DNA of 64,000 nucleotides from assembly GCF_056712565.1 (NCBI RefSeq), contig NZ_CM160072.1; one strand, written 5' to 3'. Numbering within the stretch: position 1 is the stretch's first letter; each line of letters opens with the position of its first letter. The notes beneath the pieces were generated by a model. That model did not search any database, was not told the origin of the DNA, and worked only from the letters and a program-made list of their open reading frames with translations. Shown here one piece after another: positions 28,842 through 58,679 of the stretch. The position numbers and the translations under genes are program-made.

Positions 28842-28998
28842 AGCGTCCCGCTGAAATCGTCGGCTTATCTCCTTTCGCCATGCAAGCAGTCTATCGCTAA
28901 CGCGTAGATAAAATAGTTTCATGTGTTATTACTGGATGCGTGCTCGCAAATGTGCCCGTCATTCAGACGATTCCCGACAGTGTTTCATAATTCCTCCA

Positions 28999-29016
28999 TT
29001 TTTCTCCCTTATTGGC
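28999..29016 (+). promoter_or_regulatory. BaeR box upstream of mdtA (tttttctcccttattggc)
   Basis: Matches the BaeR consensus TTTTTCTCCATDATTGGC as I recall it, ~55 nt upstream of the mdtA start. Confidence 0.6.
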
Positions 29017-29069
29017 TGGCTACACTAGTATCATTCCGCGAAACGTTTCAGGAAGAGAAACTCTTAACG

Positions 29070-33300: not shown

Positions 33301-33439
33301 GTTAGGTATCGGCATGGTCGGCGGTCTGATTGTCAGCCAGGTGCTGACGCTGTTTACCACGCCGGTGATTTATCTGCTGTTCGACCGTCTGGCATTGTGG
33401 ACCAAAAGCCGCTTTGCCCGTCATGAAGAGGAGGCGTAA
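30317..33439 (+). CDS. mdtB: RND multidrug efflux transporter MdtB
   Basis: 1040-aa ORF with 12-TM RND architecture. Confidence 0.95.
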
Positions 33440-36400: not shown

Positions 36401-36517
36401 GGCGGTCTGGTCATGAGCCAGCTTCTGACGCTGTATACCACGCCGGTGGTGTATCTCTTTTTCGACCGTCTGCGGCTGCGTTTTTCGCGTAAACCTAAAC
36501 AAGCGGTAACCGAGTAA
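33440..36517 (+). CDS. mdtC: RND multidrug efflux transporter MdtC
   Basis: 1025-aa [32 protein letters not shown]. Confidence 0.95.
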
Positions 36518-37933
36518 ATGACAGATCTTCCCGACAGCACCCGCTGGCAATTGTGGATTGTGGCTTTCGGCTTCTTTATGCAGTCGCTGGACACCACCAT
36601 CGTTAACACCGCGCTTCCCTCAATGGCGCAAAGCCTCGGGGAAAGTCCGTTGCATATGCACATGGTCATTGTCTCTTATGTACTGACCGTGGCGGTGATG
36701 CTGCCCGCCAGCGGCTGGCTGGCGGACAAAGTCGGCGTGCGCAATATTTTCTTTACCGCCATCGTGCTGTTTACTCTCGGTTCACTGTTTTGCGCGCTTT
36801 CCGGCACGCTGAACGAACTGTTGCTGGCACGCGCGCTACAGGGCGTTGGCGGCGCGATGATGGTGCCGGTCGGCAGGTTGACGGTGATGAAAATCGTACC
36901 ACGCGAGCAATATATGGCGGCGATGACCTTTGTCACGCTGCCCGGTCAGGTCGGGCCGCTGCTTGGCCCGGCGCTCGGAGGTCTGCTGGTGGAGTACGCA
37001 TCGTGGCACTGGATCTTTTTGATCAACATTCCGGTGGGGATTATTGGCGCGATCGCCACACTGATGTTAATGCCGAACTACACCATGCAGACGCGGCGCT
37101 TTGATCTCTCCGGCTTTCTGTTGCTGGCGGTTGGCATGGCAGTCTTAACCCTGGCGCTGGACGGCAGTAAAGGTACAGGTTTCTCGCCGCTGGCGATTGC
37201 TGGCCTGGTCGCAGTTGGCGTGGTAGCACTGGTGCTTTATCTGCTGCACGCCCAAAATAACAACCGCGCCCTGTTCAGTCTGAAACTGTTCCGCACTCGT
37301 ACCTTTTCGCTGGGCCTGGCGGGGAGCTTTGCCGGACGTATTGGCAGTGGCATGTTGCCCTTTATGACACCGGTTTTCCTGCAAATTGGTCTCGGTTTCT
37401 CGCCGTTTCATGCCGGACTGATGATGATCCCGATGGTACTCGGCAGCATGGGAATGAAGCGAATTGTGGTACAGGTAGTGAATCGCTTTGGTTATCGTCG
37501 GGTACTGGTGGCGACCACGCTGGGCCTGTCGCTGGTCACCCTGTTGTTTATGACTACCGCTCTGCTGGGCTGGTACTACGTTTTGCCGTTCGTCCTGTTT
37601 TTACAAGGAATGGTCAACTCGACGCGTTTCTCCTCCATGAACACCCTGACGCTGAAAGATCTCCCGGACAACCTGGCGAGCAGCGGCAACAGTCTGCTGT
37701 CGATGATTATGCAATTGTCGATGAGTATTGGCGTCACCATCGCCGGGCTGTTGCTGGGACTTTTTGGTTCGCAGCATGTCAGCGTCGACAGCGGCACCAC
37801 ACAAACCGTCTTTATGTACACCTGGCTTAGCATGGCGTTTATCATCGCCCTTCCGGCGTTTGTCTTTGCCAGAGTGCCGAGCGATACGCATCAAAATGTG
37901 GCTATTTCACGGCGAAAAAGGAGCGCGCAATGA
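36518..37933 (+). CDS. mdtD: MFS transporter MdtD
   Basis: 471-aa ORF with 14-TM MFS pattern. Confidence 0.93.
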
Positions 37934-39333
37934 AGTTCTGGCGACCCGGTATTACCGGCAAACTGTTTCTGGCGATTTTCGCCACCTGCATTGTCTTATT
38001 GATCACGATGCACTGGGCGGTACGTATCAGTTTTGAGCGCGGCTTTATCGATTACATCAAGCATGGTAATGAACAACGGCTGCAAATGCTCGGCGATGCG
38101 CTTGGTGAGCAGTACGCCCAGCACGGGAACTGGCGCTTCCTGCGTAATAACGATCGCTTTGTATTTCAGATCCTACGTTCACTGGAGCATGATAACAACG
38201 AAGATAAGCCCGGCCCCGGTATGCCACCACACGGCTGGCGCACGCAATTTTGGGTGGTTGATCAAAATAATAAAGTGCTGGTTGGCCCGCGAGCACCGGT
38301 TCCACCCGACGGCACACGGCGGCCCATTATGGTCAATGGTGCGGAAGTTGGCGCGGTGATCGCCTCCCCTGTTGAACGACTGACCCGTAATACTGATATC
38401 AATTTTGACAGACAACAGCGGCAAACCAGTTGGCTGATTGTGGCTTTATCTACCTTATTAGCGGCGCTGGCGACATTCCCACTGGCGCGCGGTTTGCTGG
38501 CTCCGGTAAAACGACTGGTGGATGGCACGCACAAACTGGCAGCGGGTGATTTCACTACTCGCGTAGCCCCCACCAGCGAAGATGAGTTGGGCAGACTGGC
38601 AGAGGATTTCAATCAACTCGCCAGCACACTGGAGAAAAACCAGCAGATGCGCCGCGATTTTATGGCCGATATTTCTCATGAACTGCGCACGCCTTTAGCA
38701 GTACTGCGCGGCGAACTGGAAGCCATTCAGGATGGTGTGCGTAAATTCACGCCGGAGACGCTGGCTTCTTTACAGGCAGAAGTCGGAACACTGACAAAAC
38801 TGGTTGACGATCTCCATCAATTGTCTATGTCTGATGAAGGCGCTCTCGCCTATCAAAAAGCACCGGTAGATTTGATCCCACTGCTGGAAGTGGCGGGAGG
38901 CGCATTTCGCGAACGATTCGCCAGCCGTGGCCTGAAATTGCAATTTTCCCTGCCAGACAGTATTACCGTATTTGGCGATCGCGATCGTTTAATGCAGTTG
39001 TTCAATAACTTACTGGAAAACAGCCTGCGCTACACTGACAGCGGCGGCAGCCTGAAAATCTCTGCCGAACAGCACGACAAAACGGTGCGCCTGACCTTTG
39101 CCGACAGTGCGCCGGGTGTCAGTGACGATCAGCTACAAAAATTGTTTGAACGTTTTTATCGCACCGAAGGTTCCCGCAACCGCGCCAGCGGTGGTTCCGG
39201 GCTGGGGCTGGCGATTTGCCTGAACATTGTTGAAGCACATAACGGCCGCATTATTGCCGCCCATTCGCCTTTTGGCGGGCTTAGCATTACAGTAGAGTTA
39301 CCGCTGGAACGGGATTTACAGAGAGAAGTATGA
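37930..39333 (+). CDS. baeS: Envelope-stress sensor histidine kinase BaeS
   Basis: 467-aa ORF; H-box ISHELRTPL; HAMP and ATPase motifs. Confidence 0.93.
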
Positions 39334-40052
39334 CCGAGTTACCAATCGACGAAAACACACCGCGTATTTTGATCGTGGAAGATGAACCGAAGCTGGGGCA
39401 GTTGCTCATTGATTATCTGCGTGCTGCGAGCTATGCGCCAACGTTGATTAGCCACGGCGATCAGGTACTGCCATATGTGCGCCAGACACCACCGGATCTG
39501 ATCCTGTTGGATCTGATGCTCCCTGGCACCGATGGCCTGACGCTGTGCCGGGAAATTCGTCGTTTTTCTGACATTCCGATCGTGATGGTGACGGCAAAAA
39601 TCGAAGAGATCGACCGCCTGCTGGGGTTGGAGATTGGCGCAGATGACTATATCTGCAAGCCGTACAGCCCACGGGAAGTGGTAGCGCGCGTCAAAACCAT
39701 TTTGCGCCGTTGCAAACCGCAGCGTGAGTTGCAGCAACAGGATGCTGAAAGCCCGTTGATTATCGACGAAGGTCGTTTTCAGGCTTCCTGGCGCGGTAAA
39801 ATGCTTGACCTGACGCCTGCAGAATTTCGTCTGCTGAAAACGCTCTCTCATGAACCAGGAAAAGTGTTCTCCCGCGAGCAGTTGCTGAACCATCTTTATG
39901 ACGACTACCGCGTGGTAACCGACCGTACCATCGACAGCCACATTAAAAACCTGCGCCGCAAGCTGGAATCTCTCGACGCCGAACAGTCATTTATCCGCGC
40001 CGTTTACGGCGTCGGTTACCGCTGGGAAGCCGACGCCTGCCGCATCGTTTAA
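39330..40052 (+). CDS. baeR: OmpR-family response regulator BaeR
   Basis: 240-aa ORF; receiver domain and winged-helix C-terminus. Confidence 0.95.
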
Positions 40053-40231
40053 CATTTTTACCTGCCGGAGATGGCCTTCAGACCAGATCCGGCAACATTA
40101 TCCCACGCATGGTCAGCAAACTGACATTATCTCTCCGCCCTGGCAGGCACCAGAAAATCGCTCATACTTTAATTGGCAAACAGTACCTTTAGATGCTGTT
40201 TTCGATACGCAATTTCAATCAAGGAGTCATT

Positions 40232-40564
40232 ATGGCTGGTTGGTTTGAACTCAGTAAGAGCAGTGATAATCAGTTCCGGTTTGTGCTAAAAGCGGGCAAT
40301 GGTGAGACTATCCTCACCAGCGAGCTGTATACCTCAAAAGCCTCTGCGGAAAAGGGCATCGCGTCGGTGCGTAGCAACAGCCCGCAAGAAGAACGCTATG
40401 AGAAAAAAACGGCAAGCAATGGCAAATTCTATTTCAATCTGAAAGCCGCCAATCATCAAATTATCGGCTCCAGCCAGATGTATGCCACCGCGCAATCTCG
40501 TGAAACCGGAATTGCCTCCGTTAAAGTAAATGGCACAAGCCAGACGGTGAAAGACAATACGTAA
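40232..40564 (+). CDS. yegP: YegP (UPF0339 / DUF1508 tandem-repeat small protein)
   Basis: ORF 40193..40564; start set at MAGWFELSKSSDNQFRFVLKAGNGE with AAGGAG Shine-Dalgarno; internally repeated motif. Confidence 0.85.
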   Translation: MAGWFELSKSSDNQFRFVLKAGNGETILTSELYTSKASAEKGIASVRSNSPQEERYEKKTASNGKFYFNLKAANHQIIGSSQMYATAQSRETGIASVKVNGTSQTVKDNT

Positions 40565-40571
40565 TTACGAT

Positions 40572-40606
40572 GCCGGGCGTAGGTTGTTGGCGTCCGGCTT
40601 TATATC
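40572..40606 (+). terminator. Putative intrinsic terminator after yegP
   Basis: Imperfect GC hairpin gccgggcg...cgtccggc followed by tttatatc. Confidence 0.4.
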
Positions 40607-40688
40607 AAAATAACGCTTATTTATTGATAATTAAGATTAACCTCCGTCATTAAAATAATGAGTAAATAAGTTTCAGTATCAGAATTTA

Positions 40689-41303
40689 TCACGCCCCACA
40701 ATCACCAATCTGATCCACCACCGTCAGATACCAGTCACTGTCATAACTGTAAAGTTGACTTAAATAAAATACCAGTCCATCGTTACTCTCTTCTGGCGCA
40801 GCGACCACACGCACGGCCCCGTATTCCATTCGACGCGCTGCGGCAATCTGCGCATCAGAAATAGTATTTTGCGGTGAACCAAACATCTGCGTGAAGACCA
40901 AACTACGGCTGACTTTATGGTGAACATCGCTATTGCTAATAAAATACCCCTGCTTATTCCAGCCACGTTCGCAGTTAAATTTCGGGATAGCTTTCTTATT
41001 AAATTCGTCATCTCGCGGAACATGTTCCCCTGCCGAGGGCCATGGGAAATACTCGGGAACAGGTTGCCTGAAATTAATTTGCTTAAGATTTTCAACATCC
41101 ATCGAAGCACCACGGTGGAAAAGAACATACAAACCCGTTTTTTTATCAATTAACGAGTTGATTAATTGGGCATCTTCTTGCTGAAAGCCCATAATCACCT
41201 TTCTGGCTGTTTCCTCCAGCGTACACCCGGCATTGGCGGGTAAAGAAAAGAATATCAGCCCCACCAGCATCATTCCTTTTTTTAACATCAGCATTGTTTG
41301 CAT
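40689..41303 (-). CDS. Accessory island gene A: secreted/periplasmic protein of unknown function (signal peptide, AXA-type cleavage site ANA-G)
   Basis: 204-aa ORF MQTMLMLKKGMMLVGLIFFSLPANAGC; last gene of a four-gene minus-strand operon; no family recognised. Confidence 0.55.
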   Translation of the reverse strand: MQTMLMLKKGMMLVGLIFFSLPANAGCTLEETARKVIMGFQQEDAQLINSLIDKKTGLYVLFHRGASMDVENLKQINFRQPVPEYFPWPSAGEHVPRDDEFNKKAIPKFNCERGWNKQGYFISNSDVHHKVSRSLVFTQMFGSPQNTISDAQIAAARRMEYGAVRVVAAPEESNDGLVFYLSQLYSYDSDWYLTVVDQIGDCGA

Positions 41304-41354
41304 CTTCTCATCATGGGGCTCATATTACACATTTAACAATTTTCAGGATAAACC

Positions 41355-43463
41355 TTACACCATACTGTTAACCTGGCCGGGTAATTCGCTAGCTGGAATA
41401 CGAAAGGTATACCAGGCATAACGACAGCGTTTCCACAGGCTGGAGAAATGGAGATGATAAAGGCAATCTGCAATAATTTCGTTATCTGGATATAAAGACT
41501 CGGCAAAATGTGTCCAGCGCGCACTGAGTTTCATGTTAAACAGTTTTTCATCTTCTTTGTTACCATACAGGCGCGACAAAGTAATCATTGCTTCGAGCGT
41601 ACCTTTATTCGCTTCTTCTTGTACCTGTTGGAGGTGCAAATGAGCAAGTGAGAGTTCTTTCACCTCAAAGATATTAAGTAAAAAAAGCCCCCATGCTTTT
41701 TCATGTCCAGCTTCATGAGCCAGAAATAAATTGTCAAGGAGATTTTTTTCATAAATAGCCCGTGTTTCTTTAGAAATTTCTTGTTTATTTAGTGCCTGGT
41801 AGCAGATAGCAATGCTAAAATAAATATTTTGTAGATCTTGTTGATGTTCGCTATAACCATAATTTTTTACCAGTGGATAAGATACCGAGCTATGGAAATT
41901 TAGGTCATCTTGAAGTATTTTAAGTGCCCGTCGAAAATACTCCAAAGCTGTAGATGGTTCATAAGGTAATTTTGTATTGTCTTCCTTATCCAAATATTCA
42001 AGAGCAACTAAATTTAATGCGGCAGGAATATTTCTTTGCTTACCAATTGTCGCAAGCGGAATGAAATAATCAGAAAGGTCAAACCAACTCAAATCTTTTA
42101 TTGCCGACCGCCAATTATGATTGTATTTAATGTCACTAGCTTTTTCCAGCCAAGCATCGCCCTGCCCTTCATCTTTTTCAAAACCCAAAATACCCTCTCG
42201 CTGGAAAAACCCCCTATAAATAACAGGTGTAGCATAAGTTGTATTCTGTGAATTTTGGCAGATAAAATTATATATCCAGAATGAATCTGGATAATAACTT
42301 AATGCAAATTTTATCGCGTACGCAGTGTAATAATTATTGAGCTTCATGTCTTCCATCACCGCTCGCTGTATACAGCACCACAACTTATCGTGATCGTTCT
42401 GCTTGTTATAGCAGGCAAGTAACCACTCTAGGGCATTATGGCGACATTCCTGAAATTGTGCGTACTGAGCAATATTCTCTGCTAAGTCGATTGCATATTG
42501 TTGCTCCTCGGGCGCAATGTCCTCAATGCTGACATCTCGGTAATCATCCCACCAAAGTAAGAGATCCATATAGTCATGTTCTTCGGTAGATAAGTGCTTA
42601 CAGGTTACTGAATCCAGCAATTCGGAAATTTCTTTATGCGACCCTCCCCAGCGTGGCATTCGAAATGGTATATATTCAACAAAAGGATAAAAAGTGTGAG
42701 GAAAAATAGTCAGGCAAACAGAAAGCCAATATTTTTGCCCACCATCATCATCATACTCAGGAAGTATATTGGGGCGAGGCAAAACGGGGCATATTGCATG
42801 CTCAAACGAAAGTCCGGAATACGCCATCAACGCTTCCACTTCTTGCGGGGAGCGGCGGTGATAATTTTTCAGTGCGATCATTAATGGTATTCCTGCGACA
42901 CTATCACCGTTAAGGTGTGCCGCCAGCCAGGCTGGCTGACCAAATACTTTTGAGTTGGTGCTGGTAAGTAATGCAGCCATCCATTGTCGTGGGTCACAAT
43001 CAATTGCTTTAAGTGTAGCGATGACCATTTGTTCATTACATGCACCAGCACAAAGCCACATTGCATGTGTGGTATCATTTGCCCAGCCATAACTGCGATA
43101 TAACCATGCACGGTGATTCCAGTATTGTGCTTCGGCAAGCCAGGCATGTGTAGAATGAGGTCTTGCTTGCTGCCAGGTTTTAATGAGTCTTAAACCTTCT
43201 GTTCCGGCATCAACTAGCGTGTTCATATCATAAAAATAGTTGCACATTTGGGTCCAGGATAAAAAATAGCGCTTTTCAGCCTGACGAGAAGTGAAACTCT
43301 CCTGTAATACCTGGTTATAAATTTCATCTAGTTCCTGATAACGTTTTTCTTGTAACATATAAGGAATATTTGCGATTTGCCATTTTCTCTCAAGAGTATT
43401 AAGTGGCATTTTTTGGTCACACATCTTTTGCATTGCACTGAGTAAACGAGCATCCTGTTCCAT
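41355..43463 (-). CDS. Accessory island gene B: large (~700 aa) Trp/Tyr-rich cytoplasmic protein of unknown function, possibly helical-repeat
   Basis: ORF 41355..43502; start set at MEQDARLLSAMQKM, which has an AAGGA Shine-Dalgarno and leaves a 10-nt gap after gene C; no family confidently recognised. Confidence 0.55.
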   Translation of the reverse strand: MEQDARLLSAMQKMCDQKMPLNTLERKWQIANIPYMLQEKRYQELDEIYNQVLQESFTSRQAEKRYFLSWTQMCNYFYDMNTLVDAGTEGLRLIKTWQQARPHSTHAWLAEAQYWNHRAWLYRSYGWANDTTHAMWLCAGACNEQMVIATLKAIDCDPRQWMAALLTSTNSKVFGQPAWLAAHLNGDSVAGIPLMIALKNYHRRSPQEVEALMAYSGLSFEHAICPVLPRPNILPEYDDDGGQKYWLSVCLTIFPHTFYPFVEYIPFRMPRWGGSHKEISELLDSVTCKHLSTEEHDYMDLLLWWDDYRDVSIEDIAPEEQQYAIDLAENIAQYAQFQECRHNALEWLLACYNKQNDHDKLWCCIQRAVMEDMKLNNYYTAYAIKFALSYYPDSFWIYNFICQNSQNTTYATPVIYRGFFQREGILGFEKDEGQGDAWLEKASDIKYNHNWRSAIKDLSWFDLSDYFIPLATIGKQRNIPAALNLVALEYLDKEDNTKLPYEPSTALEYFRRALKILQDDLNFHSSVSYPLVKNYGYSEHQQDLQNIYFSIAICYQALNKQEISKETRAIYEKNLLDNLFLAHEAGHEKAWGLFLLNIFEVKELSLAHLHLQQVQEEANKGTLEAMITLSRLYGNKEDEKLFNMKLSARWTHFAESLYPDNEIIADCLYHLHFSSLWKRCRYAWYTFRIPASELPGQVNSMV

Positions 43464-43473
43464 AGATATCCTT

Positions 43474-44190
43474 TTAATTAGGTTCAAAAATTTTAAATTC
43501 ATTCCACGGCAATTTTTTCCAGTTACTGGATGGATCTTTCAACCATGCAGTGACTTCCTTTAAATCACGGTTCGCAGTGGCGACGGGGGTATCGTATATC
43601 ATTAACCATTTTTGTCGGGCGCGAACATAAGCACTGGCATAATCTTCCCATGAAGCGAAACAATCTTGTGCTCTTTGAGCATTCAGTAATAACACTATCC
43701 AGGCCTGGTTTTCATCGCACCAGCCTAAACCGGCGATGCAACGAGTTAAAAAAGCAGTGCGCATACAGTCAAACGCCAGCCCATCCAGAACCTGGCCTTG
43801 TGCTGCCAGTTGTTCGTAAAAATCATGTGGAGAATTACCAAGCCCTGTAGCCCAGCGCTGTAATATAACGCCAATTTGTTGACGGAAATCTTCGTTGCTT
43901 TGGTAAGTTTCTGTTCCTAGCTCTTGTTTAACCTGTAGTGCAAGTTGTTGACGCTTATCATCAGTCAACTTTAAATCTAACGTGAAGCCATTTACTGACA
44001 GTCCATTACGACGAGCAACTATATCACCAATTGCTAATGCCCACTTACGTCTCTTTGTTGCTCGTCTTTTGTCCTTGATTAGATCCTTTTCTTTTTCTTT
44101 AGCAATAAAAGCATCGATTTGTGGTTTGTTTTTTTTGTATCTATAGATAAAAATAAATATTGCGACCAGGAGAACAATGATAAGACTCAT
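43474..44190 (-). CDS. Accessory island gene C: single-pass membrane-anchored protein of unknown function (possibly DUF1266-like, unverified)
   Basis: 238-aa ORF; N-terminal TM helix MSLIIVLLVAIFIFIY then soluble domain; start ATG shares one base with gene D stop (TAATG). Confidence 0.55.
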   Translation of the reverse strand: MSLIIVLLVAIFIFIYRYKKNKPQIDAFIAKEKEKDLIKDKRRATKRRKWALAIGDIVARRNGLSVNGFTLDLKLTDDKRQQLALQVKQELGTETYQSNEDFRQQIGVILQRWATGLGNSPHDFYEQLAAQGQVLDGLAFDCMRTAFLTRCIAGLGWCDENQAWIVLLLNAQRAQDCFASWEDYASAYVRARQKWLMIYDTPVATANRDLKEVTAWLKDPSSNWKKLPWNEFKIFEPN

Positions 44191-45404
44191 TATTTTTCAA
44201 CCTCTGACAGGGGTAAGTAATGAGATGTCTGTAATGTCAAACTCTCTATCTCAAAGGAAATGTTGCTGATATTTTGACCTGCAAATTGCGGATGCCACTC
44301 AGCGCCAGGGAATAACATTTCCGCAGAAGTAGCAACTATAGGGTCAATAGCATTAAGATAATGTAACTTATCAGGTGCGCTGTGTAACAGTAACCACTGC
44401 AACTCCACTGAAGGATTTGTAAAATGTTCTAATAAATGAAAGTTATTATGTAGTACGCTTAGTAAAAAACTGGTTTCGTATACTTCCGTTACATATTTCC
44501 ACCCCTGATATTCAGGTGTATTTTCATAAACAATACCCATACCTTCACAATCACTATGTCGAACTGCTTGTGGTGATAATAGTTGCAAAAGAGACAAAAC
44601 ATCGTCCGCATATTTTTTAACTGGATGACGATTTTGCTTACCTTTTATTTGATCAATTTCAAGTGAATCACCAACAACATTGAGAGCAATAGTAACATGA
44701 GGAATATTATTATTATCACGCAAACTGAATAACCGTAATTTATGTTGCTCAATTTGATTTGCATAATACTCACCATAACCACCGGTAAGATTTTTTCGAT
44801 CATCAAACTGGCCTACGCAATGTTGCATATGCCATGATTCATAAGCCATTTCACGACGAAGGTTCGAATGACTGGCATCAAACTCAACAATTTTTCCGTC
44901 TGGCACATCAAGTATTGACTTTACAGTATTTTGTTCACTCGGCTGCCACCCTTTCTCGCGTCGTTGAAGCATCTTTTCATGCTCTTCTTCACGCATTCTG
45001 AACGCAACGTAGCAGGTTATGCGCTGTAGTTTTGATTCCAGACGGGTACCACATTTCCTGGAAAGAAATTCCACCAACTCCCGTTCTTTGGTTAATATTT
45101 GTTGATGATCGGTTTCGATATAATAAAGTGTCGCAGTTGATACTGAGGCAGTATTAAACTTCGATACCAGCCATTCCGGGATTACATCATCATTTTTATT
45201 AAACAGTGAATATTCTGCAAGCGAGTTAATTTGTTGCACCATTGGAAAGTCACTAATTAGCCATCGATAAAAATGGTTGAGTAACCATTTTTGGATGGTC
45301 TCATTATCCTGGCGAAACAGACTTCTTTGCAAAATTGCTGTTTTTACTTCCGGGGCATTAATTACATCCCTTGCATTATAATTCTGGTGAATATTTCCAG
45401 TCAT
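44190..45404 (-). CDS. Accessory island gene D: 404-aa cytoplasmic protein of unknown function (possible PcfJ-like domain around WHMQHCVGQ; unverified)
   Basis: First gene of the operon; AT-rich codon usage; motif ESWHMQHCVGQFDDRKNLTGGYGEYYANQ. Confidence 0.55.
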   Translation of the reverse strand: MTGNIHQNYNARDVINAPEVKTAILQRSLFRQDNETIQKWLLNHFYRWLISDFPMVQQINSLAEYSLFNKNDDVIPEWLVSKFNTASVSTATLYYIETDHQQILTKERELVEFLSRKCGTRLESKLQRITCYVAFRMREEEHEKMLQRREKGWQPSEQNTVKSILDVPDGKIVEFDASHSNLRREMAYESWHMQHCVGQFDDRKNLTGGYGEYYANQIEQHKLRLFSLRDNNNIPHVTIALNVVGDSLEIDQIKGKQNRHPVKKYADDVLSLLQLLSPQAVRHSDCEGMGIVYENTPEYQGWKYVTEVYETSFLLSVLHNNFHLLEHFTNPSVELQWLLLHSAPDKLHYLNAIDPIVATSAEMLFPGAEWHPQFAGQNISNISFEIESLTLQTSHYLPLSEVEK

Positions 45405-45891
45405 AACATCCGCCCGTGTTTATTATATCACTCAAAGCAATAATTGTTGACTATAGATTTTTTATCTAAATCAGCATGGTTGCAGGTACATACTCAAGTA
45501 AGCCACTCAAGAAAATAACGTAAACTCAATAGTGGCAGCGTCACAAACTTTGGAAATTATGTCTTATATTTGCAGTTTATTTTAGTGAATAATTGAGATA
45601 AATGACATTATTTTACATCCTCAATAATTCAGGCTGTAAGAGGACGGCAAATACATTCATAATTATCAGGGGATGAACATTCAGGAAAGTAGTCAGTATC
45701 GTCAACTTTTTCTTTTATCACTACATGAAGATTTCGTGTAGATACTCCCATCTCTGCCACTTCTCCCCTCACATTTACACTGGAGCTAAACCCGCCGATT
45801 GCGCTACAATGCCCGCCCTTAAAGTGGGGGCACTCCCCTAACCGCTTCATCAGGTGAAGCGGCTCTGACCTGTCATCAGAACGAGAGAATT

Positions 45892-47253
45892 ATGTTTAAA
45901 CCGGAACTCCTTTCCCCGGCGGGAACGCTGAAAAATATGCGTTACGCTTTCGCTTATGGCGCAGATGCTGTTTATGCGGGCCAGCCGCGTTACTCCCTGC
46001 GTGTACGCAACAACGAATTCAACCACGAAAATCTTCAGCTCGGCATCAATGAAGCCCACGCGCTGGGGAAAAAGTTTTATGTCGTGGTCAACATTGCACC
46101 GCACAACGCCAAGCTGAAAACCTTTATCCGTGACCTGAAACCGGTGGTGGAAATGGGGCCGGATGCGCTGATTATGTCCGATCCAGGGCTGATTATGCTG
46201 GTGCGTGAACACTTCCCGGAAATGCCAATCCACCTCTCGGTACAGGCTAACGCCGTAAACTGGGCGACGGTGAAATTCTGGCAGCAAATGGGTCTGACCC
46301 GCGTGATCCTCTCTCGCGAACTGTCACTGGAAGAGATTGAAGAGATCCGCAATCAGGTGCCGGATATGGAGATCGAAATCTTCGTTCACGGCGCGCTGTG
46401 CATGGCCTACTCCGGTCGCTGCCTGCTCTCTGGCTATATCAACAAGCGCGACCCGAACCAGGGCACCTGCACCAACGCCTGCCGCTGGGAGTACAATGTC
46501 CAGGAAGGGAAAGAAGATGACGTCGGCAACATCGTACACAAGTACGAGCCGATTCCGGTGCAAAATGTTGAGCCGACGCTGGGTATCGGCGCGCCAACCG
46601 ACAAAGTGTTTATGATCGAAGAAGCCCAGCGTCCGGGCGAGTATATGACCGCGTTTGAAGATGAGCACGGCACTTACATCATGAACTCGAAAGATCTGCG
46701 CGCCATCGCCCATGTTGAACGCCTGACCAAAATGGGCGTGCATTCGCTGAAAATCGAAGGCCGTACCAAATCTTTCTACTATTGCGCACGCACCGCGCAG
46801 GTTTACCGTAAAGCTATCGATGACGCCGCTGCGGGCAAACCGTTCGATACCAGCCTGCTGGAAACGCTGGAAGGTCTGGCGCATCGTGGCTATACCGAAG
46901 GTTTCCTGCGTCGTCATACCCACGACGATTATCAGAACTACGAATACGGTTATTCGGTTTCTGACCGCCAGCAGTTTGTTGGTGAGTTTACCGGTGAGCG
47001 CAAGGGGGAGCTCGCGGCGGTAGCGGTGAAAAATAAATTCTCCGTTGGCGACAGCCTTGAGCTGATGACGCCGCAAGGCAACATTAACTTTACCCTTGAG
47101 CATATGGAAAACGCCAAAGGTGAAGCGATGCCGGTCGCACCAGGCGATGGTTATACTGTGTGGCTCCCGGTGCCGCAGGATCTTGAGCTAAATTACGCGC
47201 TGCTGATGCGTAATTTCTCCGGGGAAACCACGCGTAACCCCCACGGTAAGTGA
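45892..47253 (+). CDS. yegQ: Peptidase U32-family protein YegQ
   Basis: 453-aa ORF MFKPELLSPAGTLKNMRYAFAYGADAVYAGQPRYSLR. Confidence 0.9.
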   Translation: MFKPELLSPAGTLKNMRYAFAYGADAVYAGQPRYSLRVRNNEFNHENLQLGINEAHALGKKFYVVVNIAPHNAKLKTFIRDLKPVVEMGPDALIMSDPGLIMLVREHFPEMPIHLSVQANAVNWATVKFWQQMGLTRVILSRELSLEEIEEIRNQVPDMEIEIFVHGALCMAYSGRCLLSGYINKRDPNQGTCTNACRWEYNVQEGKEDDVGNIVHKYEPIPVQNVEPTLGIGAPTDKVFMIEEAQRPGEYMTAFEDEHGTYIMNSKDLRAIAHVERLTKMGVHSLKIEGRTKSFYYCARTAQVYRKAIDDAAAGKPFDTSLLETLEGLAHRGYTEGFLRRHTHDDYQNYEYGYSVSDRQQFVGEFTGERKGELAAVAVKNKFSVGDSLELMTPQGNINFTLEHMENAKGEAMPVAPGDGYTVWLPVPQDLELNYALLMRNFSGETTRNPHGK

Positions 47254-47397
47254 TTAATTTCGATTATTTTTCCCGGATGGAAAATTCTTAGAAACCGATC
47301 ACATACAGCTGCATTTATTAAGGTTATCATCCGTTTCGCTGAAAAACATAACCCATAAAATGCTAGCTGTACCAGGAACCACCTCCTTAGCCTGTGT

Positions 47398-47424
47398 AAT
47401 CTCCCTTACGCAGGCTTATTTTTT
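47398..47424. mobile_element. Probable P2-type att core at the prophage/host junction
   Basis: Reverse complement aaaaaataagcctgcgtaagggagatt matches the P2 att core as I recall it at 25 of 27 positions; lies between yegQ and ogr. Confidence 0.4.
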
Positions 47425-47487
47425 ACGCGTAACACAATGAAATAAAAGGATTTATTTCTGGTCACGTCCACACATTGACCACATCGA

Positions 47488-47520
47488 CAAAAAAGCCCCT
47501 CGACTGAGGGGCTTCCTGTT
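47488..47520 (-). terminator. Intrinsic terminator downstream of ogr
   Basis: Hairpin gcccctc-gact-gaggggc with a T-run on the minus strand (aaaaaa on plus at 47488..47494). Confidence 0.5.
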
Positions 47521-47525
47521 TGTAA

Positions 47526-47744
47526 TTACATCCACATAATTTGCTGCCCTGACGGCAACGGGTGCGGTCTTACGGCGTGGACTTCTCCCGGCTTCACGAT
47601 GTATCGCTGTACCGACTCATAAGTGATGAATGTGGCGCTGCAATTCACGTTCTGACACTGGTGATAACGCTCTTTTGTCGTGTCAGTGATATAGCGGCTT
47701 GTACGCGCATGTGCGGCATGCTGGCATAAAGGACAATGAAACAT
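47526..47744 (-). CDS. ogr: P2 Ogr-like zinc-finger late transcription activator
   Basis: ORF 47526..47807; start set at MFHCPLCQHAAHARTSRYITDTTKERYHQCQNVNCSATF (~72 aa, Cys4 motif). Confidence 0.85.
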   Translation of the reverse strand: MFHCPLCQHAAHARTSRYITDTTKERYHQCQNVNCSATFITYESVQRYIVKPGEVHAVRPHPLPSGQQIMWM

Positions 47745-52406: not shown

Positions 52407-52925
52407 TCACAGGCCGATATTGCGGCGGTGTTGCTCCAGCCGGTCGACGCCGTTCACCTTCTCAATCATGTTGATGGTGTCGATTTCGACCAGCTCCTTA
52501 CCGTCCATCGTCAGCCGGAAATAGGTGCAGACCACGGAGATTTTCGACTCGGTGTCTTCTCCCTGTTTGCCCTCGCCGGTGTCGATTTCTTTCTGACGTC
52601 CACGCATGACCACCTCGACGGCCACCGTTTCGCCGGTATCGTCGCGCTGGTAAGAGCCTGCAAAACGAATCGGTACGGAATCCACACCGGTTGCGGCGTA
52701 AAGCTCCCAGATAACCGAATCCGGGAAGCCACCGAGCGACCACTCCATTGACAGCGCATCGTCATCAAGGCCGAGGTCTACCGGTGCGCTGCCGTTCATC
52801 CCCGCACCGCGATAGTTTTCGAGCTTACGGGTCAGTTTTGGTAGCGTGACGGACTTCGCGACGCCCTGATAGCTGTAGCCGTTCAGAAAGACGTTCATTA
52901 ACTTGAGTTTGCGCGGCATTGCCAT
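52407..52925 (-). CDS. FII: P2 gpFII-like tail tube protein
   Basis: 172-aa ORF MAMPRKLKLMNVFLNGYSYQGVAKSV. Confidence 0.9.
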   Translation of the reverse strand: MAMPRKLKLMNVFLNGYSYQGVAKSVTLPKLTRKLENYRGAGMNGSAPVDLGLDDDALSMEWSLGGFPDSVIWELYAATGVDSVPIRFAGSYQRDDTGETVAVEVVMRGRQKEIDTGEGKQGEDTESKISVVCTYFRLTMDGKELVEIDTINMIEKVNGVDRLEQHRRNIGL

Positions 52926-54130
52926 CGGTCAGGCTCCTTATAATTGCTGTTAACCGAGGTGACCAGATTTGCCAGGTATTTATCGGTAATACGCTGGCGC
53001 AGGGTCAGGTTTTCAAGAGGAGGCACCGGTGTATAGTCGTAGTCGATATACAGTTTTCCGGCCTTGAGGGTTTCCGCATCGTTGGATTCTTCGCTGAACC
53101 AGCAGGTCGCATCCACGATATAGCCGTTTGTTTTCAGCTCACGGAATTTGGCATTGATGCCGTCAACGATGTCGCGAATCAGCGTTGCGGTGATGGGCTT
53201 GTCCACCGCCCACATGTGCGCCTCAGCCATCGTGTCAGCCAGTACCTGCGCGGTGCGGGTGTAGTTTTCAAAGAGGAACAGCGGGTCATCAGAGCAGGTA
53301 CGGTTACCCCAGAATCGGAAACCGTCGCGGCGAATCAGCGTAGTGACGCCTGACTCGTTAAGCAGGTCAGCATCGGTGCCGGACTCCTGCAAATCCCAGA
53401 ATACAGATGCGCTGATGCCGGTAACACCGTTTACCCCGACGTTGGACAGCGTTTTATGCCAGCCCTGCTCCTGGTCGATTTTAGCGCGCAGACCCAGCGC
53501 ACGGGCGGTGGCATACGCGGTAGCGGTGGTACTGGTGACCGTATCCCATGCGAGGAAATCCGGCCAGATGACCATCAGCTCACGCTGGCTGAAATTCTGG
53601 CGGTAGGCTTTCACCTCGGAAATGGTCTTACAGCCCCATGCGCTGATATATCCGAAAGCGCGCAGCTTCTGACAGACGGATGCCAGTGCAACAGCCACCT
53701 CTTTGGTATCCAGTCCCGGCACACCGAGAATACGCGGTTTAACACCGGTTACCGACTCCGCCGCCAGCAGGGCTTTTAGTCCGGTGTACTGACCGTTTTC
53801 GTCGGTGGTGCCGATGATATTGGAAACGGTCTGCGCGAGTTTCGTTTCCTCGTCATCACCGGTGCAGTCTTCCACGCGCACGACAACGGTGACCGGTTTT
53901 GACTGGTCAGCGATGGCCTGCAACGATGCCGCCAGCGTGCCTTTTTTACCGGCCTTTGCAATTGCGCTTTGCACATTGGTAATCAGCACCGGTTTATTGA
54001 GGGGGAAGGTTTCCGCATCCGCATCGCTGGCCGTGCAGACCATGCCGACAATGGCAGTGGATACGGTGGAAATGACGCGGGTGCCGTCGTTAATCTCCAG
54101 CACCTGCACGCCATGATGATAGTCACTCAT
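52898..54130 (-). CDS. FI: P2 gpFI-like tail sheath protein
   Basis: 410-aa ORF MSDYHHGVQVLEINDGTRVISTVSTAIVGMV. Confidence 0.9.
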   Translation of the reverse strand: MSDYHHGVQVLEINDGTRVISTVSTAIVGMVCTASDADAETFPLNKPVLITNVQSAIAKAGKKGTLAASLQAIADQSKPVTVVVRVEDCTGDDEETKLAQTVSNIIGTTDENGQYTGLKALLAAESVTGVKPRILGVPGLDTKEVAVALASVCQKLRAFGYISAWGCKTISEVKAYRQNFSQRELMVIWPDFLAWDTVTSTTATAYATARALGLRAKIDQEQGWHKTLSNVGVNGVTGISASVFWDLQESGTDADLLNESGVTTLIRRDGFRFWGNRTCSDDPLFLFENYTRTAQVLADTMAEAHMWAVDKPITATLIRDIVDGINAKFRELKTNGYIVDATCWFSEESNDAETLKAGKLYIDYDYTPVPPLENLTLRQRITDKYLANLVTSVNSNYKEPDRWQCRANSS

Positions 54131-54220
54131 CCGTTTAACTCCGTGGTTAATGGGTACAACTATTTTCTGTTGTGCAGAGCATAAGACGCTATTTGACCTG
54201 GCTGGTCAGTGGATGAAACA

Positions 54221-54253
54221 ACAGATAAAGAAAAGGCGGGCAATTCGCCCGCC
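54221..54253 (-). terminator. Intrinsic terminator on the minus strand, upstream of the FI promoter region
   Basis: Hairpin ggcgggc-aatt-cgcccgcc with a T-rich tract on the minus strand (ttttctttatctg). Confidence 0.55.
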
Positions 54254-54316
54254 TGTCCTGATTTGTACTCACTCATTTTCCGCCTGACAATTTACATAGC
54301 CCAAATGCTATCAAAC

Positions 54317-54334
54317 CTGACAGTCTGCTTTGAG
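54317..54334 (+). repeat. Copy 1 of ~16-bp motif CTGACAGTCTGSTYTG (ctgacagtctgctttgag)
   Basis: Shares a 13-mer with copy 3 and an 11-mer with copy 2. Confidence 0.7.
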
Positions 54335-54460
54335 CGAAAAGTGGACATTAGAGTTACAAAAGCAAGTTTAAATCATCCAAAATATTACAATGTCCTTATC
54401 TATCTGATATCGTTATGATAAAAAGCTCCTGAATATAATCGATAGTAGGTGGTTATTTCC

Positions 54461-54838
54461 ATGAAATCAATTTTAGAGGTCTTTACTCAAGGAAATACTA
54501 AAGAAAAACTGGCTGTTATCGCCGATCTCACAACCATTGCGGGAATATCGATTGCAACTATTATTGCTGGTTTGTTAACCCTAGTTGCAAAAACAGATAA
54601 ACTAGATGTTGGAAATCTGTTTGGAGTTGTCATAATATCTCTGCTCGGATTGGCTGGTGTTTGCTGTTTTGTGGCCTTATTTATTTGGGTTATAACCCAA
54701 ATGTCTAAACCATGGGGAACACCTCGGGGGGTTCAGCCCTTAGTTAAGTGTGCTATTTCCCTTATCTTTATCTGTATGTTTTTGCTGGCTGTCTTTACAT
54801 TTTATGAGTTTATTTCTTCGATGAGCATACGCTATTGA
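54461..54838 (+). CDS. Small three-TM-helix membrane protein of unknown function (prophage cargo)
   Basis: ORF 54449..54838; ATG at 54461 (MKSILEVFTQGN); three hydrophobic helices; AT-rich; convergent with the recombinase gene. Confidence 0.5.
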   Translation: MKSILEVFTQGNTKEKLAVIADLTTIAGISIATIIAGLLTLVAKTDKLDVGNLFGVVIISLLGLAGVCCFVALFIWVITQMSKPWGTPRGVQPLVKCAISLIFICMFLLAVFTFYEFISSMSIRY

Positions 54839-54860
54839 ATATAAAATCAGCCCCCATAAC

Positions 54861-55547
54861 TTAAAAGAGACCTTCTATATCGACTTCAATGCCCAAATAA
54901 CGGACTGTGCTTTCCAGTTTCTTATGGCCCAACAGAAGTTGGATCACCCGGAGACTCTTGGTTTTCTTGTAGATTAAGTAAGGTTTTGTTCTTCTCATGG
55001 AATGTGTGCTGTACAGCGAATCTTCGAGACCAAGCTTTTCTACCCACCCATGAAAAATTCGGTTGTATTGCCGGGTTGATATATGGTGGTTAGTTCCGAC
55101 CCGAGAGCGGAACAGGAAGCCTTTACTATGCCAGTTGCCGAGCTTTATCAATGCAGTAACCGCTTCCCTTGTCCCTTTGGTTATCTCAAATTGGACAGGG
55201 CTGCCGGTTTTCTGTTGCAACACCGTTGCTCTGCTTGAGACAGAACTGCCATATGCAGCATCTGATACTTTGAGTTTGACCAAATCACAGCCCCGTAGCT
55301 TAGTGTCCAAAGCCATGTTGAACAGAGCTAGATCGCGTGTTTTACCTTCCAACTCAAGTCTAATCCGGATCCCCCAGATATGAAATATCTGAAGTGGCCT
55401 TTTTTGACCGATGGTACGGTCTTTATTCCACGGTGACGTTTTCATATTCAAATCTCCTGCAATGTGGGAGATTTGAGTATGGTTGTCTCTCAAGAGCGAA
55501 AATAAGTCAACTATCACTAGTTGTTGCGCATGTACGTATTCTGTCAA
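54861..55547 (-). CDS. Short tyrosine-type site-specific recombinase (catalytic domain with only ~50-aa N-terminal extension)
   Basis: 228-aa ORF with the tyrosine-recombinase motif series: R in DTKLRGCDL, HSMRRT (H-x-x-R), LLGH, Y in TVRYLG; starts 4 nt after the stop of the upstream 280-aa gene. Confidence 0.6.
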   Translation of the reverse strand: MTEYVHAQQLVIVDLFSLLRDNHTQISHIAGDLNMKTSPWNKDRTIGQKRPLQIFHIWGIRIRLELEGKTRDLALFNMALDTKLRGCDLVKLKVSDAAYGSSVSSRATVLQQKTGSPVQFEITKGTREAVTALIKLGNWHSKGFLFRSRVGTNHHISTRQYNRIFHGWVEKLGLEDSLYSTHSMRRTKPYLIYKKTKSLRVIQLLLGHKKLESTVRYLGIEVDIEGLF

Positions 55548-56291
55548 TTAATTATTGACAATCATCAATTCTGGAATGATCAAAATCATCATATCGAATT
55601 ATAGTCTGGTTGACTGTATCTATTGTTGGTGTCATTTCTGTTATAATATCCTGATAACCTAAAGAGTTAAATACATTTACTAAGGCCTCACACCGAAGGG
55701 CCGTAGCAATTACAAAATTATAAATTGCCAGCCGTTTATTTTCTTGTTTAACTGCAAGAATGAATTCGATAGCAGTATTTTCATCACTTTGGATTGCATT
55801 ATATAGAGATACTATATTTACCATATCATCAGAGAATGTATGTATTGAATCACAAAGGGGAACGTAATGGGCATGATAGTGTGTTTCCCAGCCAATTAAT
55901 TCAAAAAGTCTTCTGGTTCCTGGATATTCAGGTGTATTTGGCCACAATCTATTAAATAGATCAGTTAGTTCTTTTCCCATGCGAATCCTTTCATTTGCTG
56001 CTGGATTAGTCATTCCTTTGGATTTTAAACACTCCAGCCACCGTTTTCCATTACTATGAACTAATTTCTTACTAGCCTTGAGTAATGCTTGTGCATTTTC
56101 GCCATCATCTATTGCTATATAAAATTGATTGGCAGCCTGTTCTATTATAACCCTAGCTAATACTTCCGATGCTGAAAAGGCTCCTATATTCAAAGAAGAG
56201 ATAGCCTGATTACTAAGTTCATTCAGTACATTAAAGTACTGTAAGACCATCAATTTTTGTTCCACACCCTTTAGGTTGTCTGGATTTGCCC

Positions 56292-57197
56292 CTATATTTC
56301 CAGACACCTGTTATCACTTAACCCATTACTGGCTTGCTGCCGTAGATATTCCCGTGGCGAGCGATAACCCAGTGCACTATGCGGATGCCATTCGTTATAA
56401 TGCTCGAACGCCTCTGCAAGGTTCTTTGCTGCCGTTAACCCGTCTGGTTTGGGCATGACACTGATGTAGTCACGCTTTATCGTTTTCACGAAGCTCTCTG
56501 CTATGCCGTTACTCTCCGGACTCCGCACCGCCGTGCTCTTCGGTTCAAGCCCCAACATCCGGGCAAACTGCCGTGTTTCATTAGCCCGGTAGCATGAACC
56601 ATTATCCGTCAGCCACTCTACTGGAGACGCCGGAAGCTCGTTGCCGAAGCGGCGTTCCACCGCTCCCAGCATGACGTCCTGTACTGTTTCACTGTTGAAG
56701 CCGCCCGTAGTGACCGCCCAGTGCAGTGCCTCACGGTCACAGCAGTCCAGCGCGAACGTGACTCGCAGTTTTTCTCCGTTATCACAGCGGAACTCGAACC
56801 CGTCAGAGCACCATCGCTGATTACTTTCTTTCACAGCCACTCTGCCTGTATGTGCCCGTTTCGATGGCGGTACAGCAGGTTTTCGCTCAAGCAACAGCGC
56901 ATTCTGGCGCATGATCCGGTAAACACGTTTGGCATTGATCGCAGGCATACCATCAAGTTCTGCCTGTCTGCGAAGCAGCGCCCATACCCGACGATAACCA
57001 TACGTGGGCAGCTCTCCGATAACATGGTGTATACGGAGAAGCACATCCGTATCATCAGTGTGACGACTGCGGCGGCCATCCATCCAGTCATCGGTTCGTC
57101 TGAGAATGACGTGCAACTGCGCACGCGACACCCGGAGACAACGGCTGACTAAGCTTACTCCCCATCCCCGGGCAATAAGGGCGCGTGCGCTATCCAC
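56292..57197 (-). CDS. insD: IS2 transposase OrfB (InsD, DDE catalytic domain)
   Basis: 301-aa [41 protein letters not shown]. Confidence 0.9.
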
Positions 57198-57520
57198 TTT
57201 TTTGCCCGTCCATATTCAACGGCTTCTTTGAGGAGTTCATTTTCCATCGTTTTCTTGCCGAGCAGGCGCTGGAGTTCTTTAATCTGCTTCATGGCGGCAG
57301 CAAGTTCAGAGGCAGGAACAACCTGTTCTCCGGCGGCGACAGCAGTAAGACTTCCTTCCTGGTATTGCTTACGCCAGAGAAATAACTGGCTGGCTGCTAC
57401 ACCATGTTGCCGGGCAACGAGGGAGACCGTCATCCCTGGTTCAAAGCTCTGCTGAACAATTGCGATCTTTTCCTGTGTGGTACGCCGTCTGCGTTTCTCC
57501 GGTCCTAAGACATCAATCAT
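57155..57520 (-). CDS. insC: IS2 OrfA (InsC, HTH); fused to OrfB by -1 frameshift in the 57155..57197 overlap
   Basis: ORF 57155..57565; start set at [26 protein letters not shown]. Confidence 0.85.
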
Positions 57521-57768
57521 CTGCTCTCCAATGACTAGTCTAAAAACTAGTATTAAGACTATCACTTAAATAAGTGATATTGGTTGTCTGGAGATTCAGG
57601 GGGCCAGTCTATTGTCTATTTTATTTTTATGCTCCTCAAATTTTGCATGGATATATTTATTTATCGCGGCTATTTTTTTTACATCTTCGTCAAGATCAAA
57701 CGGGCAACGTCCAAACAATTCTTTTTTCATATATTTCTCCTGTTGTACAAGCTTCCATAAGTTGGCAG

Positions 57769-57774
57769 ATTATA
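57769..57774 (-). promoter_or_regulatory. Candidate sigma70 -10 hexamer (TATAAT) ~40 nt upstream of the 280-aa gene start
   Basis: Plus-strand attata at 57769..57774; no clear -35 identified. Confidence 0.3.
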
Positions 57775-57962
57775 CACTGAAGATTACCTATAAATAGCTG
57801 TGCGGGATAGCAGATCAGTGCAAGAAGTACAACCAAGTGAACTGTGCGTATTCAGATACCTGGCCTAACGTTCGCGATAGCCGTCCCCTGCACGAAGCCA
57901 TATATTAGATGTATTAGCTCAGACCTTATCTGACAGGTTGAGTAGGTAGAATCTAATCAAAG

Positions 57963-57980
57963 CTGACAGTCTGGTTTGGA
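57963..57980 (+). repeat. Copy 2 of the motif (ctgacagtctggtttgga), same orientation as copy 1
   Basis: Direct repeat of copy 1; together they bracket the whole cargo module. Confidence 0.7.
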
Positions 57981-58080
57981 CTGTGAGTTCAACCGATGGA
58001 TGCAACACACAGCGATCTACGGACATTACTAGCATAGCTGTGTATTAATCATCGGGAAGCAGGTCAGTCCGCTCCTAGCA

Positions 58081-58096
58081 CAGAGCAGACTGTCAG
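58081..58096 (-). repeat. Copy 3 of the motif, inverted (minus strand reads ctgacagtctgctctg)
   Basis: Inverted relative to copies 1 and 2; 102 bp from copy 2; sits in the loop of a 10-bp perfect stem (58076..58085 with 58108..58117). Confidence 0.7.
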
Positions 58097-58151
58097 ATTA
58101 GGCTTTACTCTGTGCTATAGATACGTTAGCTCACTCCAGAGATCATACAAC

Positions 58152-58679
58152 TTATTGCGGCATTTCCGGCCATTCAGGATTTGCAGGATCCACACGGCTG
58201 ACCAGAACACTGTAGCGTTCCCATGCTTCCAGTCGGCTACGCTCCTCATCTGTTGCCATATTCAGTCTGACAGAGCGTTCCAGTGGCTGAATGATAGTTT
58301 CAGCTTCGGAAAGCAAAGCTGACTTCTGTAATTCCGCCAGTTGCAGCTGTTCGTCTGCCGTATAAATCCGCTTAATCACGGCACCATCCTTAAACATCCA
58401 TTTACCTGAGTCATCAGCACGTCGGTTGGCGGTAATATCAGGAACCTCGACAACGCTAAAACCTTCAGGGTTGAGCGTTGAAGCATCTCTGGTGATGCCG
58501 ACAATTATATTATTCTCATCGTAAACAATCTTTATCGTGTCTTCCTGAAAATTACTTACTTCCTCATACCAGTTTTTTCCCTCTTCGGACCATAACCAGA
58601 TAACATCAAAATTTTTTGTCAGTTGATATTGGGCAACAGTTTTTGGATTACCCGCAGTAATATTTTTTAAATGCTGCAT
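58152..58679 (-). CDS. G: P2 gpG-like tail fibre assembly protein
   Basis: 175-aa ORF immediately downstream of the tail fibre gene. Confidence 0.85.

Follow-up and report, generated by a model that had tools for sequence, protein, structure and literature searches.

A small three-pass membrane protein gene of family phrog_4155 as cargo of the Z/fun slot in a P2-like prophage, and a tentative anti-phage candidate

The stretch of DNA that we analysed (the window: 64,000 nucleotides of contig NZ_CM160072.1, RefSeq assembly GCF_056712565.1) contains a small open reading frame of 125 codons at 54461-54838 on the plus strand. It begins with ATG, and a Shine-Dalgarno sequence, AGGTGG (54447-54452), lies 8 nt 5' of this start codon. 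An identical coding sequence is found in E. coli ATCC 11775, with its product listed in RefSeq as a hypothetical protein (WP_000836023.1). The original prediction, made from the letters of the window, described the gene as AT-rich and convergent with a recombinase gene. Both points hold: the GC content is 38%, compared with 51% across the window and 56% in the sheath gene, and the recombinase stop codon (54861-54863) lies on the opposite strand, 22 nt past the stop of the small gene. Other loci used for comparison are given below by number (L001, L002 and so on).

The small gene lies between the P2-type tail sheath gene FI (52898-54130, minus strand), the left flank of the slot, and the tail-fibre assembly gene G (58152-58679, minus strand), the right flank, on the strand opposite to the late operons. 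From these flanking genes, the interval can be identified as the Z/fun slot of P2-like phages. The AT-rich gene in this slot fits the earlier view of it as prophage cargo with no role in the tail. Besides the small gene, the slot of the window holds a short recombinase gene, a DUF5677 gene and an IS2 element. At the left flank there is also a strong intrinsic terminator (54234-54254, minus strand), conserved, with a 9-bp GC-rich stem and a T run; since it points toward FI, it would halt cargo transcription before the promoter region of the sheath operon.

As for the wider surroundings, the D-U-T tail genes of the prophage start near 47.8 kb, and the region from about 28900 to 47700 has the look of host chromosome, with an mdtABCD-baeSR-like operon, judged by ORF sizes, and then a yegQ-like region. 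This order suggests that the prophage sits, as we presume, at the classic P2 site, where K-12 keeps an ogrK remnant.

The Z/fun position holds fun in P2, and defence genes have been reported there (PMC8987985). It was described as the second defence-enriched locus of P2, with fun in P2 itself and three new systems (Vassallo et al. 2022). The P2 record has one unrelated gene in the slot, and other isolates carry different genes between annotated inverted repeats. The record AJ512683 has annotations for the inverted repeats of the Z region.

The window has such repeats too. The left inverted repeat of the slot, here called the 'a' hairpin (54317-54346, plus strand, folding at -11.8 kcal/mol), reads CTGACA-GTCTGCTTT-GAGCGA-AAAGTGGAC, with 9-bp arms and a 6-nt centre. 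Its inverted partner, the right or 'b' hairpin (58067-58099, minus strand, folding at -18.9 kcal/mol), has the centre GTGCTA. Homology with eight other loci begins inside the 'a' hairpin, at 54313-54339. The 'a' hairpin forms the left boundary of the small-gene cassette and the 'b' hairpin the right boundary of the cargo.

The same type of site is present at the ends of cassettes in L002, L010, L014, L019, L020, L025 and L026. In P2 slots, in a Qin-like prophage and in chromosomal islets, each cargo unit has a left 'a' and an inverted right 'b' hairpin, as checked in L002, L014, L019, L020, L025, L026 and the window. The 'a' sites have arms of 9-11 bp around the centre GAGCGA, and the 'b' sites have the centre GTGCCA or GTGCTA; in L002 the sites are at 4047, 4902, 4944 and 5825. 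Inner junctions of cargo arrays have the order b, 18 nt, a, with ATCTGACAG in inverted orientation at the outermost ends. Breakpoints of homology between loci fall within the a/b sites. The difference between the 'a' and 'b' centres suggests exchange of like with like, which may lead to cassette swapping, and a widespread 200-aa recombinase is a candidate enzyme for these sites. The a/b sites correspond to the published inverted repeats of P2 Z/fun, as these are summarised in a review (PMC8987985, citing Nilsson et al.).

Directly upstream of the small gene, the region 54390-54460 (plus strand), presumed to carry a promoter or operator along with the ribosome-binding site, contains a near-invariant block, TCCTTATCTnTCTGATnTnGTTATGATAA, when nine loci are aligned. 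From -71 to -1, identity to the window is 61-94%, against about 50% at synonymous sites in the most distant pairs. Conservation is clearly above that of synonymous sites and about equal to that of the coding sequence; an initial impression that it was higher than in the coding sequence proved overstated on comparison. A scan for sigma-70 promoters upstream of the gene gave no convincing consensus, with manually chosen candidates too weak, so that expression in a lysogen is an assumption. RNAalifold found no conserved structure in the upstream region on either strand and Rfam gave nothing in 53900-58300. With both searches empty, an antisense RNA or type I toxin arrangement was dropped.

Downstream, hairpin folding and locus comparison identify 54861-54879 (plus strand) as a stub of the bidirectional terminator of the small gene. 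The left arm, TTAAAAGAGACC, and the loop, TTCTATA, are retained, and the right arm is gone. The same terminator is intact in L002, L007, L008, L010, L014 and L019, with folding energies of -13 to -19 kcal/mol, compared with 0 kcal/mol in the window. A recombination junction lies inside the terminator loop, at 54879/54880: homology with L019 stops at 54879 and the recombinase module begins at 54879. Aligned with the DNA of other loci, the mobile unit around the small gene extends from 54313/54323 to 54877/54879. Taken by its layout, the small gene appears to be a self-contained cargo unit, with its own upstream control region, its ORF and, originally, its own terminator.

From 54879 on, DNA comparison finds a different module, that of the recombinase, with 89-91% identity to its copies in other loci. 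The recombinase gene (54861-55445, minus strand; 194 aa in RefSeq) encodes a short tyrosine recombinase composed of the catalytic domain only (PF00589, E = 1.5e-17). Its native C-terminus is missing: five codons of the terminator stub, IEGLF, end the gene instead, and the catalytic Tyr is kept. Outside this C-terminus, the protein shares 91-92% identity with the 200-aa recombinases of L008 and L014. The DUF5677 gene (55552-57730, minus strand; PF18928, phrog_4167) would encode 280 aa if intact, and is split into 55552-56280 and 57612-57730. An IS2 element (56281-57611, target site duplication TTGTC of 5 bp, boundaries mapped against L001) breaks it after approximately codon 38. The "280-aa gene" of the original prediction is thus not intact in the window; an intact copy is found in L001.

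A functional link of the small gene with the recombinase and the 280-aa gene had been implied earlier, and a co-occurrence analysis had been proposed. When run, it separated them into independent modules: of 5426 complete E. coli genomes, 844 contain the recombinase DNA and 63 the small gene. The Qin-like prophage of FORC 064 has recombinase and DUF5677, beside an AAA ATPase and HNH pair, and lacks the small gene, and two other P2-slot variants carry the small gene without either of them. On the separate distributions and the junction inside the terminator loop, the implied link fails, and the adjacency of small gene and recombinase is a chance product of DNA rearrangement.

Some further observations concern these neighbours. 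In L025, L026, L027 and L036, the four loci checked for this, the recombinase is part of a small variable islet or of a prophage cargo region. A promoter switch of the FimB type, operated by the short recombinase, was considered and dropped: there are no suitable inverted repeats around the upstream region, and the recombinase is an unrelated module. According to a 2025 preprint, DUF5677 is among the domains enriched beside serine recombinases in Bacillota; a DUF5677 ORF tested there was not one of the five that conferred phage resistance.

In terms of the protein, ORF, profile, hydropathy and AlphaFold2 together describe the product of 54461-54838 as a three-pass inner-membrane protein of 125 aa. 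The claim of three transmembrane segments is supported twice. Kyte-Doolittle hydropathy gives three hydrophobic stretches, at residues 17-43, 52-80 and 93-117 approximately, all above the usual transmembrane threshold. The AlphaFold2 model, built on a 37-sequence alignment (mean pLDDT 85), places its long helices at 13-44, 50-81 and 91-120, preceded by a short N-terminal one.

Averaged over the family, the K+R count is 3.6 in the N-terminus and 2.6 in loop 2, compared with 0.8 in loop 1 and 1.0 in the C-tail, which has a mean length of 8 residues. Under the positive-inside rule, this distribution predicts an N-in/C-out topology, with the N-terminus and the basic loop 2 in the cytoplasm and the C-terminus in the periplasm, and it would place the conserved N-terminal motif on the cytoplasmic side. 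In the 56-cluster profile set, conservation is centred on the N-terminal 30 residues, with the helices kept throughout. The consensus is ERLAIxADxxSIxGVSxA; G28 is invariant in this set, and L17, D22 and S30 come close to it. The only strongly conserved sequence is therefore this amphipathic N-terminal segment, predicted to be cytoplasmic, as it enters helix 1. A small-xxx-small packing motif (G28/A32/A36) in helix 1 hints at association between helices; we infer that the protein may oligomerise.

The protein matches the phrog_4155 profile with E = 8.3e-83, residues 1-125 aligning to positions 5-129 of 129, and this PHROGs family has no annotated function. All 37 distant relatives in the alignment (A2) match phrog_4155 alone. 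There was no match for the small protein in Pfam, NCBIfam or PADLOC; in PADLOC-DB v2, with a threshold of E <= 0.1, the recombinase and DUF5677 gave nothing either. Sequence and fold searches against the solved structures of the PDB and against viral structures returned generic helical matches only, and a literature search on the accessions of the small protein, the hairpin sequences and "Sll1717" returned nothing.

The family is rare. A word-indexed search found 21 clusters, all of them in Enterobacterales, and a HMMER profile search of 1.84 billion representatives found only 56. Cluster lengths range from 69 to 183 aa, most being 112-135 aa; nearly all cover practically the whole profile, with the few shorter ones covering part of it. 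Searching with tblastn gave no match to the family in 50,697 deposited phage genomes and 72,556 plasmids, so the small gene is not a common phage gene. None was found in a scan of 100,044 species-representative genomes.

Homologues keep a length of approximately 125 aa throughout, at 57-99% identity, and comparison with eight loci of other genera gives pairwise dN/dS values of 0.15-0.4. These values show that the small gene is a genuine gene under purifying selection and not a chance ORF. Between two E. coli variants, dN/dS is 0.56, calculated from about 13 differences. Such a value is compatible with constraint having relaxed after loss of the ATPase gene described below.

We found the small family in at least eight different sets of neighbours. 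The Yersinia homologue adjoins a DUF2971-like protein and DUF4145, the Klebsiella homologue adjoins HEPN_AbiV, and in Pectobacterium two small proteins accompany it beside a recombinase trio. The Rahnella homologue, 62% identical, occupies the interval from the portal gene to gpA, which is the other P2 hotspot, and has FRG and HEPN RiboL-PSP genes on its flanks. A RelA/SpoT-like gene stands beside a homologue in the region from tail fibre to integrase of a prophage, and a STAND-like ATPase gene is next to some copies. L030-L032 have a same-strand gene run with an aadA-like gene, possibly an integron-type cassette array. The convergent neighbours (recombinase, ATPase, DUF2971-like protein, a 136-aa protein and a TolA C-terminal domain lipoprotein) were considered for a common toxin domain, and this was rejected, as they are mutually unrelated. 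What these contexts have in common is no single partner but a variable accessory setting of defence type on mobile elements.

One of these neighbours deserves a separate description. In L016 (6465-6845, minus strand), and also in L017 and L018, the homologue is convergent with a predicted lipoprotein of 126 aa that consists of the TolA C-terminal domain, in a locus inserted beside the hyc operon. The lipoprotein may possibly act as a periplasmic TolA decoy against Tol-dependent phages or colicins.

The neighbour with the closest association is an ATPase. A convergent gene of 556 aa comes after the small gene in Serratia, Enterobacter, Klebsiella and two metagenomic contexts (6506-8176 in L007, 6505-8175 in L008, 6507-8177 in L014 and 6504-8174 in L035). 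NCBI names the product a P-loop ATPase of the Sll1717 family, and the Pfam nSTAND1 profile scores 27.3 bits against a cutoff of 27.1. Small gene and ATPase gene have one bidirectional terminator in common and make up a 2.48-kb block, with one hairpin per end, in five different surroundings. Their divergence matches: examples of the small gene/ATPase values are 0.907/0.942, 0.947/0.959 and 1.000/0.998.

In the case of E. coli, the small gene came in with such a cassette and every copy has lost the ATPase: none of the 63 genomes carrying the small gene has it. The terminator and roughly the final 180 nt of the ATPase gene survive in two E. coli variants, B (L002) and C (L019), which have in common a 1.6-kb deletion reaching the right hairpin. 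The small gene of variant C is the only intact gene in its P2 slot, beside the short ATPase remnant. Variant A, that of the window, is 97.9% identical to C up to 54879 and diverges beyond. By this pattern, variant A derives from a C-like ancestor whose ATPase remnant was replaced by the unrelated recombinase-DUF5677 module from the terminator loop onward. Between B and C, identity is 96.8% in the small ORF and 92.7% in the ATPase remnant, which hints modestly at continued constraint on the small ORF in E. coli.

Looking from the side of the ATPase, a profile search of all ORFs at 80 ATPase-family loci, taken from species-representative genomes of many phyla, found the small family in none, with seven control loci all recovered at E <= 2e-31. 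An Edwardsiella ATPase, 96% identical, has no small gene with it. The small family, in turn, is found without the ATPase in Yersinia, Pectobacterium, Rahnella, a lambdoid prophage, the same-strand array L030-L032 and a small integrative element. Considered as a possible two-gene system, small gene and ATPase do not co-occur consistently; they are co-inherited in five close contexts.

The Sll1717-family ATPase is itself broad and uncharacterised, with more than 987 clusters in many phyla. It usually stands alone in variable regions, and its PADLOC matches are weak (PDC-M28C and mad8 only). Taken by itself, it is a plausible candidate for a defence system of one gene.

The small gene is an uncharacterised hotspot cargo gene that belongs to no characterised family. 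For its function we favour, with a probability of roughly 40%, a stand-alone inner-membrane protein that is made in the lysogen and guards the host-prophage pair against other phages. The small protein would be expressed from the prophage in the lysogen and would act alone at the inner membrane. The more probable mode would be a block of genome entry, of the superinfection-exclusion type; membrane collapse upon infection, of the abortive type, is less likely. The preference comes from the self-sufficient anatomy of the cargo, the conserved cytoplasmic face, the exchangeable and defence-rich slots, and the persistence of an intact gene after loss of its neighbour. On the other side, no characterised exclusion or defence protein is homologous to the small protein, and guilt by association in hotspots is weak evidence for an anti-phage role. 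A wider statement is held more tentatively: phrog_4155 might be a new family of stand-alone membrane anti-phage proteins, with a cytoplasmic motif that senses or blocks a phage component, carried in a hairpin-bounded cassette and active without the ATPase. With the same reserve, this cassette might be shuttled among P2 hotspots, lambdoid prophages, integrative elements and chromosomal islets.

In kind, the small gene is like other cargo of the Z/fun slot and like the small membrane exclusion proteins that phages encode. Small inner-membrane superinfection-exclusion proteins such as T4 Imm, P22 SieA and HK97 gp15 are multi-pass, come from accessory genes of phages and act alone. The small protein is like them as a small multi-pass inner-membrane protein from an accessory gene, but has no detectable homology to them, and phrog_4155 is also present in non-phage elements. 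P2 Fun(Z) blocks T5. We take the hypothetical protein in the Z/fun slot of the P2 record to be fun(Z), by its position and not by the label in the record. This cargo has the same G-FI slot, the same inverted repeats and the same character of AT-rich foreign DNA as the small gene; the two products, however, have no sequence similarity, one being a small membrane protein and the other a soluble-looking protein of about 300 aa.

The association with the ATPase leads to the main rival explanation, in which the small protein is the membrane part (effector, anchor or regulator) of a pair formed with the 556-aa ATPase, and the E. coli copies are orphaned, near-inert relics. RexB, with RexA, is the membrane partner in an NTPase-based abortive-infection system, and a likeness to this type lies in the co-inheritance of the small gene with a STAND-like P-loop ATPase in several Enterobacterales. 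The block bounded by a/b sites in five contexts with matching divergence, the common terminator, the ATPase remnant in variants B and C and the somewhat raised dN/dS between E. coli variants all favour such a pair, and inheritance as one block in the five non-E. coli contexts means that the small gene may not be fully autonomous. However, the genes are convergent and not in an operon as in the Rex type, and convergent transcription from separate promoters would be unusual in an obligate pair. The families are not co-distributed, given the 80 ATPase loci without the small family and the many contexts with the reverse situation, and in E. coli, where the ATPase is absent, the small ORF is intact and better conserved than the remnant. 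We consider an orphaned partner unlikely. A role as a membrane toxin or as an addiction factor stabilising the cassette, or else as a neutral hitch-hiker, is quite unlikely. Small hydrophobic proteins in mobile cassettes could be of this kind, L014 is set among SymE, HicB and CbtA/CbeA toxin-antitoxin genes, and the conserved upstream block could serve as an operator for tight control. Neutrality, though, disagrees with purifying selection across genera, and a toxin disagrees with the lack of an antitoxin-like partner or of an antisense RNA signal in Rfam and RNAalifold. Moreover, 125 aa is far larger than typical type I toxins, and the small gene persists alone in cassettes such as that of L019.

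Two resemblances to other small membrane proteins also have to be weighed. Genes for pore-forming colicins and their immunity proteins are convergent, with a common bidirectional terminator, and the E1-type immunity proteins have three helices in about 100-115 aa. The small protein is alike in size, three helices and predicted N-in/C-out topology, its gene faces a neighbour across a common bidirectional terminator, and polymorphic-toxin genes are found a few kb off in L007 and L011. It could in this way be an orphan immunity-type protein that guards against a toxin acting on the membrane, for instance a pore-forming bacteriocin, a contact-dependent effector or a T6SS effector. Such a role is very unlikely: the neighbours have no colicin or pore-forming domain, no Pfam immunity family is matched, no colicin gene is nearby, none of the 72,556 plasmids carries the small gene, and unrelated genes lie between it and the toxin loci of L007 and L011. 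In favour of a lysis role, as a holin or otherwise, the size of the protein and its three hydrophobic helices recall class I holins (lambda S, P2 Y), which have about 100-130 aa and three TM helices. Class I holins are N-out/C-in with a charged cytoplasmic C-terminal domain, whereas the small protein is predicted to have the opposite topology, with a periplasmic C-tail of 8 residues and about one basic residue. There is no match to a holin or lysis family (Pfam, PHROG-lysis, NCBIfam) and no lysis cassette, the gene being in the G-FI interval on the strand opposite to the late operons, and homologues are found in non-phage elements too. On context, predicted topology, missing charged C-terminal domain and missing homology, the holin reading is effectively refuted. 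With neither lysis homology nor a lysis cassette, and with the small gene conserved, the original prediction of an exclusion or abortive-infection protein keeps its footing here.

Lastly, if phage exclusion is true, a compact single-gene membrane mechanism would be added to the cargo of the second P2 hotspot, which is less studied than the tin/old hotspot, and D22, G28 and S30 would be tractable targets. If there is no phenotype, the gene would be one more hypothetical cargo gene. Adjacency inside P2 hotspots can be a scar of rearrangement and not an operon, so candidate "systems" should be delimited by the a/b hairpins, not by proximity.
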